Positions 7,584 through 24,000 of a stretch of 24,000 nucleotides of DNA are shown in pieces. Position 1 is the stretch's first letter. Each line of letters opens with the position of its first letter. The position numbers and the translations under genes were made by a program. The notes under the pieces were generated by a model. The model saw only the letters and a program-made list of their open reading frames with translations. It was not told the DNA's origin and searched no databases. The DNA is from Halanaerobiales bacterium (GTDB lineage: Bacteria; Bacillota; Halanaerobiia; Halanaerobiales; DTU029): NCBI GenBank assembly GCA_029981855.1, contig JARRCS010000004.1:2074-26073 (forward strand). The letters are read 5' to 3'.

Positions 7584-10154
7584 TTACCTCCCACAGCAAT
7601 GCTTATACTTCTTACCGCTTCCGCACGGACAGGGGTCATTTCTGCCCGGTTTATCTGGTTTAACGATTGGCCGACGTTTTACTAACTTCTTATTAGCCTG
7701 CTGTTCCCCGGCAGCCCTTCTCTGGACGAGGTTATTACTCTGCTGATACTGCAGATTCTCCCGATCAACATTAGGCGTTCTCAGGGTGAATCTCGGGGAA
7801 TCTTCCTCAACCTCGACCCGGAAGAGGTTTTTAATAATATCCTCCCTGATGGAACTGGTCATCTCATTGAACATATCATAGGATTCAAATATATACTCCG
7901 TCAGGGGGTCCTTCTGGCCGTAAGCCCTGAGCCCGATGCCCTGGCGCAATTCATCCATATTATCAAGGTGATTTATCCATTTCTGGTCAATAATCCTTAA
8001 GGCCAGGAATTTAATCAGTGCGAGCATCATTTCCTGCCCGAGCCTCTTCTCTTTAGCCTCATAGGTCTCCTGACCGAGCTTAACGAGATACTCCTTAATC
8101 TCATCTCTGGATTTACCCCTTAAATCCTCTTCTCCTAGCATCCTGTTAAAGTTATACTGGTTGAGATAATTAACCAATCCCTCCAGATCCCAGTCATCAG
8201 GGTGGATATCTTCTGAAATGAAGAGATTCATTACATCATCTACAGTCTTATTTACCATCATCAGGATATTTTCCTTAAGATCACCGGCAAAGAGAATCTG
8301 CCTTCTCTGCTGGTAGATAATCTCCCTCTGCATATTCATAATATTATCGTATTCCAGAACAGCCTTTCTGATCTCAAAATTACGACCCTCGACCTTTTTC
8401 TGGGCCCTTTCCAGGGCTCTGGTAATCATCTTATGCTTGATCGGCTCTTCCTCATCAATACCTATTTTATCCAGCAGACCTTTGATATTATCTGAGCCGA
8501 ATAGCCTGAGCAGATCATCCTCCAGAGAGACAAAAAACTGGGAAGAACCCGGATCTCCCTGACGACCTGAACGGCCTCTGAGCTGATTATCGATGCGGCG
8601 GCTTTCATGCCTCTCGGTACCGATTACATGCAGCCCACCCAGTTCCTTAACACCTTCACCGAGAACAATATCCGTTCCCCGCCCGGCCATATTGGTAGCA
8701 ATGGTAACGCTATTTTTCTGGCCAGCATCCTTAATAATCTCTGCCTCCCGCTCATGATTCTTGGCATTGAGGACATTATGGGGTATCCCCCTTCTCTTCA
8801 AACGCCTGCTCAATTCTTCGGATTTATCAATATCAACCGTACCTACCAGTACCGGTTGGCCTTTTTGATAACGTTCAACAATCTCCTCAATAACCGCGTT
8901 GAATTTCTGATCCTCATTGGCAAAAACAACATCAGGCAGGTCCTCCCTGATCATCGGTTTATTGGTCGGAATAACCACTACCTCCATGCCGTAGATCTTG
9001 ATAAACTCCTCCTCTTCAGTAGCGGCAGTACCGGTCATTCCGGCTAATTTATCATACATCCTGAAGTAGTTCTGATAGGTGATGCTGGCAAAGGTCTGGC
9101 TCTCCTTATTGACGGCCACACCCTCCTTGGCCTCTATCGCCTGATGCAGTCCCTCACTGTAACGGCGGCCCTCCATAATTCGACCCGTAAACTCATCAAC
9201 AATCTTAACCTCGCCATCCTTGACAATATAATCCCGGTCCTTCTTCATCAGGGTATGGGCCTTTAGAGCCTGATTTAACTGGTGAGCCAGCTTAAAATTC
9301 TCGTCATCGTAGAGATTGGAGATGCCAAGCATCTTCTCGACCCTGGCCACCCCTTCCTCGGTCAGATGGACTACCTTATTCTTCTCGTCAAGTTCATAGT
9401 CCCTCTCCTTAACCAGCCGTGGGATAATCCGGTTAAATTTGGTATAATCCCGGGTAGATTCCTGGACTGGCCCGGAGATAATCAGGGGGGTCCTGGCCTC
9501 ATCGATCAGGATGCTGTCTACCTCATCGAGAATAGCATAATTGAGTTCCCTCTGGACCACATCCTCGGGCCGGTAGGCCATATTATCCCTCAGATAGTCG
9601 AAGCCAAACTCATTATTGGTTCCGTAAGTGATATCAGCATTATAGGCCTTCTTTCTCTCTTCAGGGCTCATCCCATTCAGGATTACACCTACAGAGAGAC
9701 CCAGAAACCTGTAGATTTGCCCCATCCACTCACTATCCCTTTTAGCCAGGTAGTCATTGACGGTAACCACATGAACACCCTTACCGGTGAGGGCATTGAG
9801 ATAAACGGGTAATGTCGCTGCCAGGGTCTTGCCTTCCCCGGTCTTCATCTCGGCAATCTTTCCCTGGTGTAGAACGATACCGCCCATTAACTGGACATCA
9901 AAGTGACGAAATTTCTCTTTGGTAGAACGCTGGGCTGCCTCACGGACAACCGCAAAGGCCTCCGGCAGAAGGTCATCAAGGGTCTCTCCTCCGGCCAGCC
10001 TCTCCTTAAACTCAGTGGTCTTGGCCCTCAGTTCCCCATCCGATAACTTCTGCATCTTAGGTTCCAGGCTATTAATCATATCAACAATCGGTTGTAATTT
10101 TTCCAATTCTCTTTCATTAGAATCCTTAAAGATCTTTTTAATAAAATTCAGCAT
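7584..10154 (-). CDS. secA: Preprotein translocase ATPase SecA
   Basis: [20 protein letters not shown]..., the DEAD-like motor motifs ([39 protein letters not shown]) and the C-terminal zinc finger [14 protein letters not shown] are all present. I prefer the ATG at 10154 (GAGGG 8 nt upstream) over the ORF-track GTG at 10163. Confidence 0.97.
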
Positions 10155-18650: not shown

Positions 18651-18989
18651 TCATCTATCTATACTATGCGGCTCTTTTGACTTTAACTCCTGATATAATA
18701 CCCTGCTCAAGCTATTCATACCCTGCTGGTTAGAACCTATTTTACTGATTTCAGTGTCGAGCATATCTGTAAAGATATCTTCGGAAAACCCACCATCGAT
18801 AAACCCGCTCTCGGGAACCGTACCCCGCATAGCCTTAAACATCTGCTTTAAGAAGATTGCCGTAAACTCATTACATAATTCCTTAAGCTGCTCATCCTTA
18901 CTCCCTTTCCCTGACCAGGATTGTTTTTCAAGTTTCCGGGCATCCTGATAGGTTTTATACTGCTGCAAAATTAAATTATCTATCTTCAT
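18651..18989 (-). CDS. flgJ: Flagellar rod-binding protein (FlgJ N-terminal-domain only)
   Basis: 112 aa. ELCNEFTAIFLKQMFKAMR is the Rod-binding (FlgJ N-domain) motif. No muramidase domain is present. AAGGAG lies upstream of the ATG, and the gene is last in the flgFGAHI series. Confidence 0.7.
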   Translation of the reverse strand: MKIDNLILQQYKTYQDARKLEKQSWSGKGSKDEQLKELCNEFTAIFLKQMFKAMRGTVPESGFIDGGFSEDIFTDMLDTEISKIGSNQQGMNSLSRVLYQELKSKEPHSIDR

Positions 18990-19136
18990 TTAAGCCACTC
19001 CTTAAGTTTATACTTCACTTCCATTCAGCAATAACTGCAACAAGCAATTTCCTAGTAGTATTAGATTAATGCCACACTCTGTTCGGCAACTTGCTTTACC
19101 TTCAAACAACTGCAAATAGATGTTGGAGAAATGTTT

Positions 19137-19289
19137 GGAAATTTTTTGCAAATGACTCTTGGTGAATCGGAGTTAAAAATCAGGTCGAGCCACAGGATGT
19201 GGCGAGCTTATCAAGGGTCAGGATGACCCATTTGATAAGTTTGCCTGATTTTTAACGGAGATAAACCTTAGAGTCATCAAAAAATTTCC
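19137..19289. ncRNA. S module: 153-nt three-way-junction fold with twin CAGGATG hairpin loops (strand unresolved)
   Basis: P1 pairs 19137-19148 and 19152-19158 with 19271-19289 (19 bp, with a 3-nt bulge). P2 pairs 19172-19184 with 19244-19256 (13 bp, perfect). P3 is the hairpin 19189-19203 (GCCAC AGGAT GTGGC). P4 is the hairpin 19207-19239 (CTTATCAAGGGTC AGGAT GACCCatTTGATAAG). Both strands of the P1/P2 internal loop contain CGGAG. Confidence 0.5.
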
Positions 19290-19353
19290 CTGCGACGCGC
19301 TCGATGCGCTAGTGCAGAAACCATCATTGCGTAACTAAAAAGAAGGTTTCTGC
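19290..19353. ncRNA. H module, copy 1: two hairpins supported by covariation with copy 2
   Basis: The hairpins are GCGC-TCGAT-GCGC (19297-19309) and GCAGAAACC, a 22-nt loop, GGTTTCTGC (19314-19353). The paired positions co-vary with the copy at 23217-23280. Confidence 0.6.
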
Positions 19354-20487
19354 AATCGGAAAAGCAATTATATCCCTGGGGCTAGCCCCGATAGCATTTA
19401 GAGCTGCCACTATCTCGCCGATGGTCCCCCCACTCGGCACAACCACCATATGGCCTTCTCCCTCCGATATCTTAATCTCCGTCTCTTTAGTGATTGTTGT
19501 CTCACCACCGCTAAAGGGAGCGGGTTGGGAAACCTTCTCACCGCTAGATATCTTTACCGTTAGATTACCATGGGCCACGGAAACTGTCGAAATTCTCACA
19601 TTATGGCCCATAACTATTGTTCCCGTCCGTTCATTAATAACTACCTTGGCCTCCATACCTGCCCGGACCTTAAAATTGTTAATTTTGGCGATAAACTCTA
19701 CCACCTTATCCCTGAACTGTTCCGGTATATTAACATTTACCTTACCGGCATCTACCGCCTCAGCAATCGGTTCAGCAGTAAAAAGGTATTTAAAATTATC
19801 ATTTATTGCCTGGGCAATAAAACTAGCTGTCTCAAAATTCGGCTGGTCCAGCAAAAAGGTCAGGTTTCTATGGCTCAAGCCGAAATTCAATTCCCGTTCC
19901 ACAATGGCCCCTTCCGGTATCCTGGCCACGGTCGGGTGGTTCTTTCTGACCTGAGTTCCACCCGACCTGGTGTTAAATCCCCCGATAGAGACTGGTCCCT
20001 GGGCAACGGCATAGACCTCCCCGTTGGCCGCCTTCAAGGGGGTCATCAGAAGGGTACCTCCCTGCAAACTCTTGGCATCCCCCAGGGAATTTACCGTTAC
20101 ATCTATCCTGTCACCCTTATGGGCAAAGGGAGGAAGACTGGCGGTAACTATTACGGCAGCCAGATTACGGCTGCGAATCTGCTCCGGGGTAACATTAACC
20201 CCGAATTTTTTTAACATATTAGCTACCATCTGGATAGTGGCCTGGCTGCGGTTACTATCACCCGTTCCGGCCAGGCCGATAACAATACCGTTCCCCATCA
20301 ACAGATTATCCCTGATCCCTTCAATCCTGGTTATATCCCCTATATTAACTAGCGGGTCTTCAGGTGAGGCAGCCAAAAGAGAACTACTTAAGGTAATGGC
20401 TAAAGCAATGACTACCGGAACCGCTAATATATACTTAAACAATTTTCTTCTTGCTAAATAACGACCGAAGGCTGATTTATTAATCAT
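19324..20487 (-). CDS. flgI: Flagellar P-ring protein FlgI with a non-canonical, repeat-derived C-terminus
   Basis: 387 aa. A signal peptide is followed by IGDITRIEGIRDNLLMGNGIVIGLAGTGD, typical FlgI, through ...LNAIGASPRDIIA. The final FPIAETFFLVTQ is encoded by the repeat and replaces the usual ILQA.K.AGAL.AEL..I tail. Confidence 0.9.
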   Translation of the reverse strand: MINKSAFGRYLARRKLFKYILAVPVVIALAITLSSSLLAASPEDPLVNIGDITRIEGIRDNLLMGNGIVIGLAGTGDSNRSQATIQMVANMLKKFGVNVTPEQIRSRNLAAVIVTASLPPFAHKGDRIDVTVNSLGDAKSLQGGTLLMTPLKAANGEVYAVAQGPVSIGGFNTRSGGTQVRKNHPTVARIPEGAIVERELNFGLSHRNLTFLLDQPNFETASFIAQAINDNFKYLFTAEPIAEAVDAGKVNVNIPEQFRDKVVEFIAKINNFKVRAGMEAKVVINERTGTIVMGHNVRISTVSVAHGNLTVKISSGEKVSQPAPFSGGETTITKETEIKISEGEGHMVVVPSGGTIGEIVAALNAIGASPRDIIAFPIAETFFLVTQ

Positions 20488-20584
20488 GAACTCCCTCCTT
20501 TCATTAGAACAGTGTAAGACCTTTTTATAGAGAACACTTTATAATTAATCCCTTTCAATTAATACCTCATTATCGTTCGGTAAT

Positions 20585-20642
20585 AACTACAAATAGAGTC
20601 ATCAAAAAATTTCCACTGAATCGGAAACATCTATTTGCAGTT
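20585..20642. repeat. Repeat-family copy B: 58-nt miniature element with both inverted-repeat ends
   Basis: The sequence is AACTACAAATAG...CATCTATTTGCAGTT. The termini pair over about 12 of 13 positions, and there is an inner stem TTTCC/GGAAA. The interior consists of the 21-mer shared with copy A and the AATCGGAAA segment shared with copies A and E. Confidence 0.8.
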
Positions 20643-20671
20643 TTAAAAAAGGAATTTCCTACAGGATTTAA

Positions 20672-21259
20672 TTAGAAGATCCAGTTTAGAAATCTTTCCA
20701 GCAGGCCCGGCTTCTGTTTATCGGCAACAACACCCTTACCCTGGTAATCGATACTTGCCTCGGCCACCTTTTTAGAAGAAACCGTATTCTCCGGTGTTAT
20801 ATCCTCAGGCCTAATGATACCCGATAACCTGATTATCTGTTTCTCTCCATTTATTTTAATCTCCTTGGTTCCTGCAATCCTAAAATTACCACTGGGCAGG
20901 ACTTCCTTAATGATGGTAGTAATATCGGCCTTCAATTTACCGCTCTGTACGGTCTTACCATCTGCAGTGCTCTGATCAGAATAGCTAAAGCCGAAGGCCT
21001 TGATAAAGTCAAAGATACCCAAACCGGAACCTGCATCAATACTGCTTTCCTGGCTGGTATTGGTATTGGCACTCTGAACTGCATTAGCATCTTCCTCAAT
21101 TATAATGGTGACTACATCACCTACCCTGAACTCCCGGTTTTTATCTTCATCCTGATAGAGATTAACAGCCTGGTCTGACCAGAGGGAATTATCAGCAAAT
21201 ACTGTCAAACTGTAGGAACAAACCACTATAATCAGCAAGAATAATTTAACCTTCACCAC
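20672..21259 (-). CDS. flgH: Flagellar L-ring protein FlgH
   Basis: 195 aa. After a signal peptide come SLWSDQAVNLYQD, FRVGDVVTIIIEE and SGNFRIAGTKEIKINGEKQIIRLSGIIRPEDI, which is the FlgH pattern. It uses a GTG start with GGGGGAG upstream. Confidence 0.85.
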   Translation of the reverse strand: MVKVKLFLLIIVVCSYSLTVFADNSLWSDQAVNLYQDEDKNREFRVGDVVTIIIEEDANAVQSANTNTSQESSIDAGSGLGIFDFIKAFGFSYSDQSTADGKTVQSGKLKADITTIIKEVLPSGNFRIAGTKEIKINGEKQIIRLSGIIRPEDITPENTVSSKKVAEASIDYQGKGVVADKQKPGLLERFLNWIF

Positions 21260-21269
21260 TATCTCCCCC

Positions 21270-22268
21270 TTACGGTTGGATCACTCTTACCAGGTGGGAA
21301 TTAATAACCTGAGCTTTAAATCTGTAACCGGTCTTCAGATTCTCCACCAGAATATATTCGCCCTTTTTACCGTTTTCCCGGGCTTTAACAAGGGTAGAAA
21401 CCCTGATATTACCTACTATTACCTCTGCCTTTAGTACGTCCCCAAAAGATACGATATCCGGTATTATCAAATAATAGCTTGTCAGGATGCTACCTCTGGT
21501 AATCGGGATATTAACAATACCCTCCTTAACCAGTCTATTATTAAAATCTGTAATTAATTCGCCCCGGAAACTACCTATTTCCCTGGTTTCTATACTAAAA
21601 TCATCCCTAACAAGTCTTTCTCCCTTCTTAATGCTTCGTTTTGCTACAAATACCTCCTGTAACAACTTAACTTCAAATCCAAGATAGACCCTTTTATAGA
21701 CCTGCCCATCGATTTTAAGTAAAACCCGTAAGGATACATTCCCCTTAAGTTCTTGCTGGCCCATCAGATCAATCTCCAGGGAATAATCCCTATCCGGTAT
21801 TATTAAATCAGGGGGGTTGAACCTCGGTATAATCTCTACCCTGCCAGCCGGACAATTAACCTTTTCTTTTAAATAATCTCTGGCAAAGGCGATAATAGTA
21901 TCACTACTTACCCTCCGGCTAGCAGTCTTAACTGTCACCTTATAAGGCATATGCAGGGTAAAACTTGCGGGGGAATAGCCCTTCTGCTGGATCGCCAGAG
22001 AGATGAGTTCCCTGGGTATCTCCCGTTCATAGCCCGGGAGCAGGGCCTGGCCCAGATCAACCGAGGCAATTTCAGCCAGCTTCTCCCCTTCAACCCCTTC
22101 GATCCGGGCTATATCCCCCAGCGTAATTCGAGAATCGGAAACCTCAACATATTCCGGTATGATAATCTTAATTGTCCCCGCCTTAACCCCGCTGTTAAAA
22201 ACTAACGTGACCATTAAGATGAACAAGATCAATAATCGATAGAGATTTCTATTAATAAAAACCCGCAT
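21270..22268 (-). CDS. flgA: Flagellar P-ring assembly chaperone FlgA (SAF domain)
   Basis: 332 aa. It has a signal/anchor, an ITLGDIARIEG segment, a SAF-like VAKRSIKKGERLVRDDF, and a C-terminal GDVLKAEVIVGNIRVSTLVKARENGKKGEYILVENLKTG. It sits between flgG and flgH. Confidence 0.7.
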   Translation of the reverse strand: MRVFINRNLYRLLILFILMVTLVFNSGVKAGTIKIIIPEYVEVSDSRITLGDIARIEGVEGEKLAEIASVDLGQALLPGYEREIPRELISLAIQQKGYSPASFTLHMPYKVTVKTASRRVSSDTIIAFARDYLKEKVNCPAGRVEIIPRFNPPDLIIPDRDYSLEIDLMGQQELKGNVSLRVLLKIDGQVYKRVYLGFEVKLLQEVFVAKRSIKKGERLVRDDFSIETREIGSFRGELITDFNNRLVKEGIVNIPITRGSILTSYYLIIPDIVSFGDVLKAEVIVGNIRVSTLVKARENGKKGEYILVENLKTGYRFKAQVINSHLVRVIQP

Positions 22269-22316: not shown

Positions 22317-22345
22317 AACTACAAATAGATGCTCGAGAGATGTTT
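22317..22345. repeat. Repeat-family copy C: isolated end fragment abutting the flgG stop
   Basis: AACTACAAATAGATGCTCGAGAGATGTTT matches the left end of copy A (19108-19136) at 25/29. The flgG stop codon (22344-22346) overlaps its last bases. Confidence 0.7.
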
Positions 22346-23132
22346 ACCGCCTCAACTGGCTAGCAGTCCTCAACATCTCATCAGCCGCCTGGATTGCCTT
22401 GGAATTAATTTCATAGGCCCTCTGGGCAGCTATCATATTGACCATCTCTTCAACAACCTTGACATTGGACATCTCCAGGAAACCCTGGGCAATTGTCCCA
22501 TACCCAGCAGCTCCCGGGTTATTCACCATCGGCTCACCGGAAGCAACCGTGGCCTCAAAGAGGTTGCGCCCGATACTATTTAACCCGGCGGGATTCGAGA
22601 AACGGGCCAGCTCGATCTGCCCCAGTTGCTGCGGTTGATTATCCCCGGCTATGCGTACGGTAACAGTACCATCAGAGGTGATACTGATCTCAGTTGCATC
22701 TTGAGGAATATAGATCTCGGGCTGAATGGGGTAGCCATCAGAGGTGACAATCCTGCCACTACTATCCTGTTTTAAAGAACCATCCCGTGTATAGGCGATA
22801 GACCCGTCAGGACGTAATACCTGTAAAAACCCATCACCCTCAATCACAATATCTAAAGGATTACCCGTATTCTGAACACTACCGGCAGAAAAAATCTTCT
22901 GGGTAGCCGAGACCTTTGAGCCGTGTCCAATCTCAATACCAATAGGAACCTGTGCCCCCTGGGCATTGGGGGTTCCCGGTTCACGTAAGCGCTGATACAT
23001 TATATCCTGAAAATTCACCCGGCTCTTTTTAAATCCGGTTGTATTGACATTAGCCAGGTTATTTGAAATAACATCTATATTGGTCTCCTGAGCATCCATC
23101 CCGGTTGCAGCAGTCCATAAAGCACCTATCAT
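22344..23132 (-). CDS. flgG: Flagellar basal-body distal rod protein FlgG
   Basis: MIGALWTAATGMDAQETNIDVISNNLANVNTTGFKK... at the N-terminus, and a C-terminal GFLEMSNVKVVEEMVNMIAAQRAYEINSKAIQ. The start is set at the ATG at 23132 (GGGAG 8 nt upstream) rather than the ORF-track 23183. Confidence 0.92.
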   Translation of the reverse strand: MIGALWTAATGMDAQETNIDVISNNLANVNTTGFKKSRVNFQDIMYQRLREPGTPNAQGAQVPIGIEIGHGSKVSATQKIFSAGSVQNTGNPLDIVIEGDGFLQVLRPDGSIAYTRDGSLKQDSSGRIVTSDGYPIQPEIYIPQDATEISITSDGTVTVRIAGDNQPQQLGQIELARFSNPAGLNSIGRNLFEATVASGEPMVNNPGAAGYGTIAQGFLEMSNVKVVEEMVNMIAAQRAYEINSKAIQAADEMLRTASQLRR

Positions 23133-23216
23133 TAAAATCACTCCCTGTTTTTTGATTTCGTAATTCGGGGTTGTCTCTGTCATTCAACAACCCTATCAGC
23201 CTCCGTAAAGGTCCAG

Positions 23217-23326
23217 CTGCGACGCACTCGATGTGCTAGTGTCTAAACCATCATTGCGTAATTTTAAAGAAGGTTTAGACCGACATGCTCGATGCAAAAA
23301 GCAAATTTCTGTAGTATCTGGTTAAT
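23217..23326. repeat. Repeat-family copy D: H module copy 2, a second CTCGATG mini-hairpin and module X
   Basis: 23217-23280 aligns with 19290-19353 at 53/64, and every stem difference is compensated. 23293-23326 aligns with 19036-19070 at roughly 80% by eye (module X). It ends 5 nt from the flgF stop. Confidence 0.75.
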
Positions 23327-23331
23327 CCTAC

Positions 23332-24000
23332 TTACCCGACTCTGCCAACACTATTAACAGCCTTATCAAGGGTACTGTCAAGACTTTTAATAACCTTCTG
23401 ATTGGCCTCAAAGATACGGTTAACCTCAATCATCCTGACCATCTCCTGAAGGGTTTTAACATTGGAGCTCTCTAGATAACCCTGTCTTAACCGGTAGCCG
23501 GCCGTAAGCTGCTCTCCTGCGGTCCGGCTGCTGTAAAGATTATCTCCAATCTTCTCTAGCTGACTTTTATCCGGGAAGTCTACGATCAAGAAACGGTCAC
23601 CGCGTAGATTTCCCAGGTGAAGCCGTCCGTTACCGTCAATTTTGATCTCCCTGCCGGTAATCGTCTGGAGCGGTCCCCTCTCACCCCTGACCGGGTAACC
23701 CTGTTGAGTAACTATCTGCCCCTGCTGATTAAGGGTGAAGTTGCCGTTACGGGTATATCTAAGTCCTGCCGGGGTCTCAATCACAAAGAAACCATCACCC
23801 TCCAGAGCTACATCCAGCTTATTACCGGTATGTTTTAGATAACCCTGCCTGAAATCTGTATAGGTCTCCTCCAGGCTGACACCGGTACTCATAGAACCGA
23901 TATCCCCCGCTTTCCGGCCTTCTTCAATCCGGGAGATTAAAACCTCGGGAAAGGACTGTTCTATCCCTTCATCACGCTTAAAACCGGCGGTACTGGCATT
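23332..24000 (-). CDS. flgF: Flagellar basal-body rod protein FlgF (N-terminus beyond the window)
   Basis: The reading frame stays open to position 24000 (...NASTAGFKRDEGIEQSFPEVLISRIEEGRKAGDIGSMSTGVS...), so the ORF-track ATG at 23892 is internal. The C-terminal part GYLESSNVKTLQEMVRMIEVNRIFEANQKVI is a rod-protein signature. Confidence 0.8.
   Translation of the reverse strand, partial: NASTAGFKRDEGIEQSFPEVLISRIEEGRKAGDIGSMSTGVSLEETYTDFRQGYLKHTGNKLDVALEGDGFFVIETPAGLRYTRNGNFTLNQQGQIVTQQGYPVRGERGPLQTITGREIKIDGNGRLHLGNLRGDRFLIVDFPDKSQLEKIGDNLYSSRTAGEQLTAGYRLRQGYLESSNVKTLQEMVRMIEVNRIFEANQKVIKSLDSTLDKAVNSVGRVG

Follow-up and report, generated by a model that had tools for sequence, protein, structure and literature searches.

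A hairpin cassette with compensated stem changes in flagellar operon spacers of a Halanaerobiales bacterium, possibly a module of a mosaic mobile repeat

Two copies of a short repeat, which we call cassette H, lie among flagellar genes in the 24,000-nucleotide window (the whole stretch of DNA analysed, part of a Halanaerobiales MAG deposited at NCBI). The genes near the two copies are all encoded on the minus strand, in the order flgF-G-A-H-I-J, and the proteins of the window carry accessions MDI3546929-46. The genes concerned are located as follows:

flgF, minus strand, stop codon at 23332, running past the end of the window
flgG, 22344-23132, minus strand
flgA, 21270-22268, minus strand
flgH, 20672-21259, minus strand
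flgI, 19324-20487, minus strand, 387 aa (MDI3546943), with the last 12 codons (FPIAETFFLVTQ and the stop) contributed by the composite element E described below and by copy A of cassette H
rod-binding (FlgJ-like) gene, 18651-18989, minus strand

Copy B of the cassette is found in the spacer between flgF and flgG, and the final codons of the flgI reading frame extend into copy A. Both have the same orientation relative to the operon and both occupy spacers behind a coding region.

A sequence-only reading of this DNA had aligned positions 19290-19353 with 23217-23280. The ungapped alignment was borne out, with 64 columns and 11 differences (columns 10, 18, 26-28, 46, 48, 49 and 61-63), and we place the boundaries of the unit more narrowly, at 61 nt (19293-19353 and 23220-23280), since the first three bases of the 64-nt unit (CTG on the plus strand, CAG on the minus strand) are flank; at copy B they are part of the conserved flgG leader. 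On the minus strand, copy A is bordered by TTTCCGATT (19354-19362) on one side and by CAG (19290-19292) on the other. At both known copies the mRNA-sense 3′ junction reads GTCG followed by CAG, i.e., CTG followed by CGAC on the plus strand, and no target duplication is visible at these two junctions, one of which lies inside another repeat. The 9-bp inverted repeat of the cassette closes one end of the unit only. Alignment and folding defined the following hairpins:

cassette H copy A, 19293-19353, 61 nt: small hairpin 19297-19300 paired with 19306-19309, loop TCGAT; large hairpin 19314-19322 paired with 19345-19353, loop 19323-19344
cassette H copy B, 23220-23280: small hairpin 23224-23227 paired with 23233-23236; large hairpin 23241-23249 paired with 23272-23280, loop 23250-23271
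third small-hairpin variant, CGAC ATGC TCGAT GCAA, 23281-23297, directly adjoining copy B

The same two hairpins were obtained by folding both copies on either strand with RNA or DNA parameters: a small one with a 4-bp stem and the loop TCGAT, and a large one with a 9-bp stem, a 22-nt loop and two further inner pairs. The cassette folds independently of the surrounding sequence at its loci, and the minus-strand RNA is the most stable of the four folds tested (z = -2.9 and -3.5 for the two copies). A column check confirmed that eight of the 11 differences form four stem pairs that stay Watson-Crick, that there are no one-sided changes, and that the remaining three differences all fall within the 22-nt loop. 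In the small hairpin, the pair of columns 10:18 changes from G:C to A:T, so that the stem can be written GCRC-TCGAT-GYGC. In the 9-bp stem, three adjacent pairs are switched: 26:63 from C:G to T:A, 27:62 from A:T to C:G and 28:61 from G:C to T:A. Two variants of the cassette can thus be told apart, with GCAG/CTGC versus GTCT/AGAC at the base of the large stem and GCGC versus GCAC/GTGC in the small stem. One more compensated pair is found in the third small hairpin, where stem position 2 is T:A for C:G; the basal position of this hairpin is an A.A mismatch, and a strain form with GTGC is present in the Logan contigs L044 and L045. Loops and linkers are better conserved than the stems.

None of 200,000 random sets of 11 substitutions reached four compensated pairs, the analytic probability being about 1e-7. 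When the 3′ partners were slid by one to three columns, the share of paired cells fell from 100% to 30-47%. A column-shuffle control gave 24/500, with a floor of about 1/16 when only two sequences are aligned. The pattern is beyond chance. All pairs are strictly Watson-Crick, with no G.T intermediates, and the compensation is therefore compatible with either strand, as DNA or as RNA.

These results bear on the earlier argument that neutral drift of a repeat would not preserve pairing in this way. The argument is sound for independent substitutions but too strong as a general statement, because template switching inside a palindrome alters several bases and compensates them in a single step, with no selection involved, as has been documented for hairpins (PMC8794818). 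The pairing of cassette H could accordingly be mechanical rather than selected: template switching, or gene conversion within the hairpin, would copy one arm of the quasi-palindrome onto the other, and a multi-base change of one arm (CAG to TCT) would be mirrored in a single event. The adjacency of the three switched pairs, which resembles a block replacement, the strict Watson-Crick pairing and the stability of the hairpin as single-stranded DNA all fit such an origin, whereas the compensation of the isolated pair in the small hairpin and of the pair in the third variant, and the better conservation of loops and linkers, are left unexplained by it. We give it a minor, though appreciable, share of the probability. 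It also presupposes that the hairpin forms physically, which makes it compatible with, and not opposed to, the mobile-repeat reading that we favour. The proposal of a functional RNA or single-stranded DNA structure thus stands insofar as the hairpins and their compensation are real and exceed what independent drift would produce; the evidence consists of two full copies (four pairs) and one extra small-hairpin variant.

We have next to consider what surrounds the two copies. Between the flgF stop codon and the conserved leader of flgG, the following features were distinguished:

109-nt insertion, 23220-23328, between the flgF stop and the conserved flgG leader, made up of copy B and 48 nt
conserved flgG leader, 23168-23217, minus strand, from GCTGGACC to a hairpin GGGTTGT/ACAACCC, directly downstream of copy B in the mRNA sense and separate from cassette H

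The 48 nt beside copy B resemble the left end and the target of element E. Four sister species have the same gene order and FlgG proteins that are 87-91% identical. In three of them (L031, L034 and L035) the flgF stop codon is followed by GCTGGACC after 4-13 nt and the 109-nt insertion is absent. In the fourth (L056), an unrelated AT-rich filler of 50 nt with internal GGTATTA repeats (9847-9896) lies between the flgF stop and GCTGGACC. Small insertions seem to have landed repeatedly at this position.

The flgG leader itself was compared at five Halanaerobiales loci (window 23168-23217, L031 6790-6873, L034 7051-7130, L035 9841-9920 and L056 9896-9950). It comprises GCTGGACC, a GGAGGC-type box and a hairpin of 7-8 bp with the loop TGAC.GA.AGA; in L034, five pairs of this hairpin have both partners changed, and L056 has a further variant. 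The leader matched no Rfam family. From its sequence, it is a candidate cis-regulatory element.

Copy A lies within a larger repeat, composite element E, which we characterised by comparing the window with Logan contigs (L-numbers) from other samples of the same species. The features of the window that belong to this element or are related to it are:

composite element E, 19063-19362, flgI-flgJ spacer, without its left 28 nt (the complete element is about 330 nt)
TwoAYGGAY-like palindrome, 19135-19291, plus strand, with a 24-26-bp closing stem and hairpins at 19189-19203 and 19215-19229 that have AGGAU loops
H-less related element, 20533-20655, flgH-flgI spacer, reading CCTTTTTTAAAACTGCAAATAGATG-TTTCCGATT-CAGT-GGAAATTTTTTGATGACTCT... 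on the minus strand, absent in L010 and L019
partial module Y+/X′, 22317-22345, directly behind the flgG stop codon, in all strains examined
repeat fragment, 2613-2648, consisting of AAGGTTTCTGC (an H stem arm), then AATCGGAAA, then an inverted module X′, with the csaB stop codon inside

In mRNA (minus) order, E consists of TTTCCGATT, cassette H, CAG, the TwoAYGGAY-like palindrome, module Y+ and a right end finishing in ...GGCATTAATCT. The window is 99% identical to contig L010 apart from two blocks (20533-20655 and 19070-19362) that only the window has. E is thus present or absent between strains that are 99% identical; L010, L019 and L020 have empty sites, with an intact flgI and a flgI-flgJ spacer of 71 nt. 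Target duplications of 13-14 bp (...CT.TAGGAA) flank the element, and its ends form no clear inverted repeats. In sample ERR14750377, contig L015 ends in ...AATCCTGTAGGAA followed by ATTCCTTTTTTTAAAACTGCAAATAGATGTTTCCGA, and contig L039 starts inside the palindrome and runs through ...GCGTGGCATTAATCT, AATCCTGTAGGAA and TTTGAAAAC into flgI. Since AATCCTGTAGGAA stands on both sides, at the end of L015 and the start of L039, a complete E with a 13-bp target duplication occupies the flgH-flgI spacer of this strain. The same start of E follows ...AATACTACTAGGAA behind flgI in the ERR1475xxxx strains, and in the window the right junction of E reads ...GGCATTAATCT, then AATACTACTAGGAA, then ATTGCTTG. 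In sample SRR13298159, the end of L011 and the start of L018 reveal a short E in the flgI-flgJ spacer, made of the left end, a type-A cassette H and one palindrome arm.

Among near-identical strains, no fewer than three forms of the flgH-flgI spacer occur: one of 8 nt (L010 2592-2601, L019), the 123-nt H-less element (window, L012) and a full E. The full E of this spacer (ERR1475xxxx strains; L038/L039 1-150) carries a variant palindrome whose loop is AGGAG, not AGGAU.

Cassette H is optional within this family of repeats. On the minus strand E reads ...AAACTGCAAATAGATG-TTTCCGATT, then the 61 nt of H, then CAG-GGAAATTTTTTGATGACTCT..., and in the related element at 20533-20655 the order is ...AAACTGCAAATAGATG-TTTCCGATT-CAGT-GGAAATTTTTTGATGACTCT..., with H missing to the base (20615-20618). 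The H-less element belongs to a diverged subfamily, and presence or absence of H within E could equally result from deletion between the flanking GCAG repeats.

Element E also affects the flgI reading frame in the window. The TGA stop codon of flgI falls in the H loop of copy A, and the conserved C-terminal 18 residues of the protein are lost, with 12 repeat-derived residues in their place; the junction lies between 19362 and 19363. In all five Logan variants FlgI has 393 aa and the canonical end IIQEIKAAGALHAKIELI, and the 387-aa form occurs only in the NCBI MAG. We infer that E was inserted behind flgI and that a secondary deletion of about 97 nt followed, which would have taken the target copy on the left together with 48 nt from the end of flgI and 28 nt from the left of E. 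Replacement of 48 nt of flgI by 293 nt through another mechanism, or an intron, was considered and rejected, because insertion of E with target duplication plus the deletion of about 97 nt explains the pattern. The 387-aa gene is either a rare deletion allele, whose P-ring protein is possibly defective, or a problem of the MAG.

The restriction of this junction and of the 387-aa FlgI to the NCBI MAG raises the question of whether the H pattern as a whole could be chance similarity or an assembly artefact. For H itself an artefact is refuted by independent assemblies: sequence-identical H variants are present in Logan contigs, variant A in L018 and variant B in L010, L012-L017 and L043-L045. 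We consider the probability of this explanation to be negligible for practical purposes.

The sequence-only reading had offered, as one function, a processing or stability element of the host. In this scenario, H would act in cis within the polycistronic flagellar mRNA (minus strand), serving as a processing site or as an exonuclease barrier that sets the ratios of neighbouring products; control of the relative amounts of neighbouring products has been proposed for REP and Correia elements. The common orientation of the two copies relative to the operon, their location in spacers behind a coding region, the stability of the minus-strand RNA fold and the independent folding of H are what one would expect of such an element, and because all three contexts lie in one operon and in one orientation, a role in the flagellar transcript is conceivable. 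The genomic context nevertheless speaks against it. Four sister species with the same gene order do without H, the insertion that holds copy B is absent in them, the element that holds copy A is strain-polymorphic, and one copy truncates flgI. The cassette is optional and is carried by a larger repeat, it lacks a U-tract and a terminator signal, and the hairpin that is conserved ahead of flgG is another one. We therefore judge an mRNA element to be unlikely.

The palindrome next to copy A invites a different functional explanation. A search with the TwoAYGGAY model (RF01731) matched 19135-19291 over the full model (1-168) with 29.5 bits, short of the gathering score, which is 43; the E-value was 0.12 for 4.5 kb and 0.0096 for 371 nt. 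The fold of the region has z = -9.3. Its loops, CAGGAUG, are one base shorter than AYGGAY and keep the GGA core, and it has two hairpins and a P1 of 24-26 bp. TwoAYGGAY RNAs are described as common, with very long closing stems, and have been proposed to bind CsrA (PMC4333381); in the published alignment, Psychromonas has multiple copies, with other hairpin repeats beside them. The palindrome loops ACAGGAUGU and UCAGGAUGA resemble, by sequence, CsrA binding sites, and they are antisense to the flagellar operon that surrounds them and are carried by a mobile element. On its reverse strand, the palindrome weakly matches Bacillaceae-1, another family proposed to bind CsrA (PMC4333381).

Cassette H might then be a 3′ extension or stabiliser of a plus-strand small RNA of the TwoAYGGAY type. 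Copy A does abut the TwoAYGGAY-like structure on the plus strand, and the hairpins that follow TwoAYGGAY in Psychromonas provide a parallel. H lies outside the TwoAYGGAY model, however, copy B has no such partner, and the short E of L018 retains H with one palindrome arm only; moreover, no plus-strand promoter-like site and no terminator were found, and the TwoAYGGAY score is below the Rfam threshold. A small-RNA role for H appears very improbable to us.

Further copies of the cassette and known signals were searched for. A covariance model (R1) built from the two H copies and a regular expression, applied to about 180 kb of related loci, retrieved only known or orthologous copies. Two full copies of H were available, and the covariation rests on four (plus one) pairs. 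The H pattern TCGATNNNNTAGTNNNNNNNNNATCATTGCG gave seven matches in JGI metagenomes, all by chance, and three patterns run against viral contigs gave nothing or chance matches. A blastn search of E against plasmids and phages found none. In Rfam 15, no family covers 19293-19353 or 23220-23280, the only match being a spurious one to MIR834 (13.7 bits, E = 1.7). Neither copy of H has a terminator-like or σ70-like promoter signal on either strand, no transposase or recombinase is encoded in the 24-kb window or any fetched locus, and no spurious ORFs overlying H or E were found in the protein collection. A σ54/σ28 promoter reading of modules X/Y+ was rejected, since inspection by eye showed that the spacing does not fit. 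The loop of H has a weak similarity to the right end of E, with a local score of 20 versus 12.7 ± 2.2 in shuffles (14 of 2000 shuffles reach the score), which is only a hint, at the level of sequence, that the two may be homologous.

More copies of H probably exist. In more than seven samples, Logan contigs break at the same bases on either side of the ACTAG linker of H, flgF-side contigs ending in ...GGTTTAGACACTAGC and flgG-side contigs starting with TTAGACACTAGCAC...; the breaks were seen at the 3′ ends of L043, L044 and L045 and at the 5′ ends of L010, L012-L017 and L018. Breaks that are common to samples, as expected of a de Bruijn graph with repeats, point to further copies or variants of H, and they hint at unseen variants, e.g., a G.U intermediate or hybrids of the A and B forms. 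The start of L018 lies 30 nt ahead of the third-position base of the small stem.

How does cassette H compare with known systems? BIME/REP mosaics (REP, REPIN, RAYT) are, like H, short intergenic hairpin repeats located behind coding regions and combined with other motifs, and their stems likewise vary from one subfamily to another without loss of pairing; they are believed to move in the form of single-stranded hairpins (PMC2817692, PMC3116915, PMC3733652). A REP is defined by a stem of 8-9 bp or longer, a loop of 4-5 nt and an unpaired GTAG/CGTC tag at one foot (PMC3733652). The large hairpin of H, in contrast, has 9 bp but a 22-nt loop, and the small one has 4 bp; no GTAG/CGTC tag is in position, the linker being CTAG/TAGT and CGTC occurring nowhere except across the small stem. 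The 24 kb of the MAG and the short Logan contigs showed no RAYT gene, and among REP hosts the Firmicutes-related ones are atypical. The BOX elements of Streptococcus pneumoniae (boxA-boxB(n)-boxC) resemble H and E in being modular and intergenic, with an optional or variable internal module and stable folds (PMC3049150); BOX has inverted terminal modules, whereas E is flanked by a target duplication of 13-14 bp and its ends form no clear inverted repeats. A relation in sequence would not be expected.

Miniature IS200/IS605 elements (PATEs) have, like H, hairpins at or near both ends, and they insert 3′ of a fixed short sequence with no target duplication, to which the CTG flank of H on the plus strand (n = 2, one junction lying inside another repeat) may be a parallel. 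Their hairpins near the two ends are similar and bound by the same TnpA, but those of H share no sequence, the distance between cleavage site and hairpin is not the expected one, and a search for TnpA found none. Classical MITEs differ from H, which lacks a target duplication and has an inverted repeat at one end only, and from E, which has the 13-14-bp duplication but no terminal inverted repeats. An intrinsic terminator would require a GC-rich stem with a U-run, and there is no such site at either copy. The neighbour of copy A resembles TwoAYGGAY (RF01731) in matching the whole model, in the long closing stem with two GGA-loop hairpins and in being embedded in repeats, and departs from it in its AGGAU rather than AYGGAY loops and in scoring 29.5 bits against a gathering score of 43. 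These comparisons would place H, as a new family, among the small mosaic repeats that form hairpins, with BIME/REP and BOX as its nearest counterparts in behaviour.

The explanation that we favour, with about equal measures of confidence and doubt, is that H is the hairpin cassette of a lineage-specific mosaic mobile repeat, whose pairing is kept because it works as a folded single strand in the element's own propagation or persistence. H would be one optional module of insertion-polymorphic intergenic repeats that have settled in the short spacers following stop codons of the flagellar cluster in this species. It would function once folded into a hairpin, whether as single-stranded DNA while the element is mobilised or replicated or as part of a transcript, and only copies or master variants with intact pairing would propagate, which would keep the stems complementary. 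The two H variants would correspond to two sublineages of the cassette. Most likely, then, H is a structural signal for the propagation or stability of the element itself and not for control of flagellar genes. A recognition hairpin for a transposition enzyme had been among the suggestions of the sequence-only reading, and it fits best of them, although no enzyme was identified. We may speculate that the absence of a target duplication of H, together with the constant CTG flank, would suit a structure-specific single-strand enzyme of the HUH/Y1 type.

A bolder version of the mobile-repeat reading is a long shot. According to it, E and H would form a small mobile element of an undescribed kind that homes to spacers behind the stop codons of the flagellar operon and carries a CsrA-type decoy palindrome. 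H would be recognised by a single-strand-specific enzyme, and the three varying pairs at the foot of its stem would be a guide-like specificity determinant rather than merely structure.

If H is indeed the cassette of a mobile repeat, Halanaerobiales would add an example to the poorly understood mosaic hairpin repeats, which have been studied mostly in proteobacteria and streptococci, and the orphan TwoAYGGAY motif would be linked to a setting that is mobile and mosaic. Near-identical strains would offer a remarkably clean natural experiment within 4 kb of a single operon, with empty, full and short alleles and alleles with and without H, one of which destroys the conserved terminus of a flagellar protein. 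There is also a warning for annotation: compensated stem changes between two copies of a repeat are not by themselves evidence of a host regulatory RNA.

Modules of these repeats are found behind other stop codons as well. A module of about 65 nt (AAACATTTCTCCAACATCTATTTGCAGTTGTTTGAAGGTAAAGCAAGTTGCCGAAC...), which is the right part of E, lies behind the stop codons of the unrelated genes flgG, fliA and a 202-aa gene (window 19061-19136 and 22317-22345; L043 6870-6935; L028 16106-16150), and its 15-nt core is also present in inverted orientation (2633-2647 and 20628-20642). Repeat modules make up the spacer between csaB (pyruvyl transferase) and wecG, with the csaB stop codon within module X, and the same arrangement occurs in L028. 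Behind the csaB stop, the sequence reads ATG TTT CCG ATT GCA GAA ACC, and these codons (FPIAETF) recur at the end of the truncated flgI.
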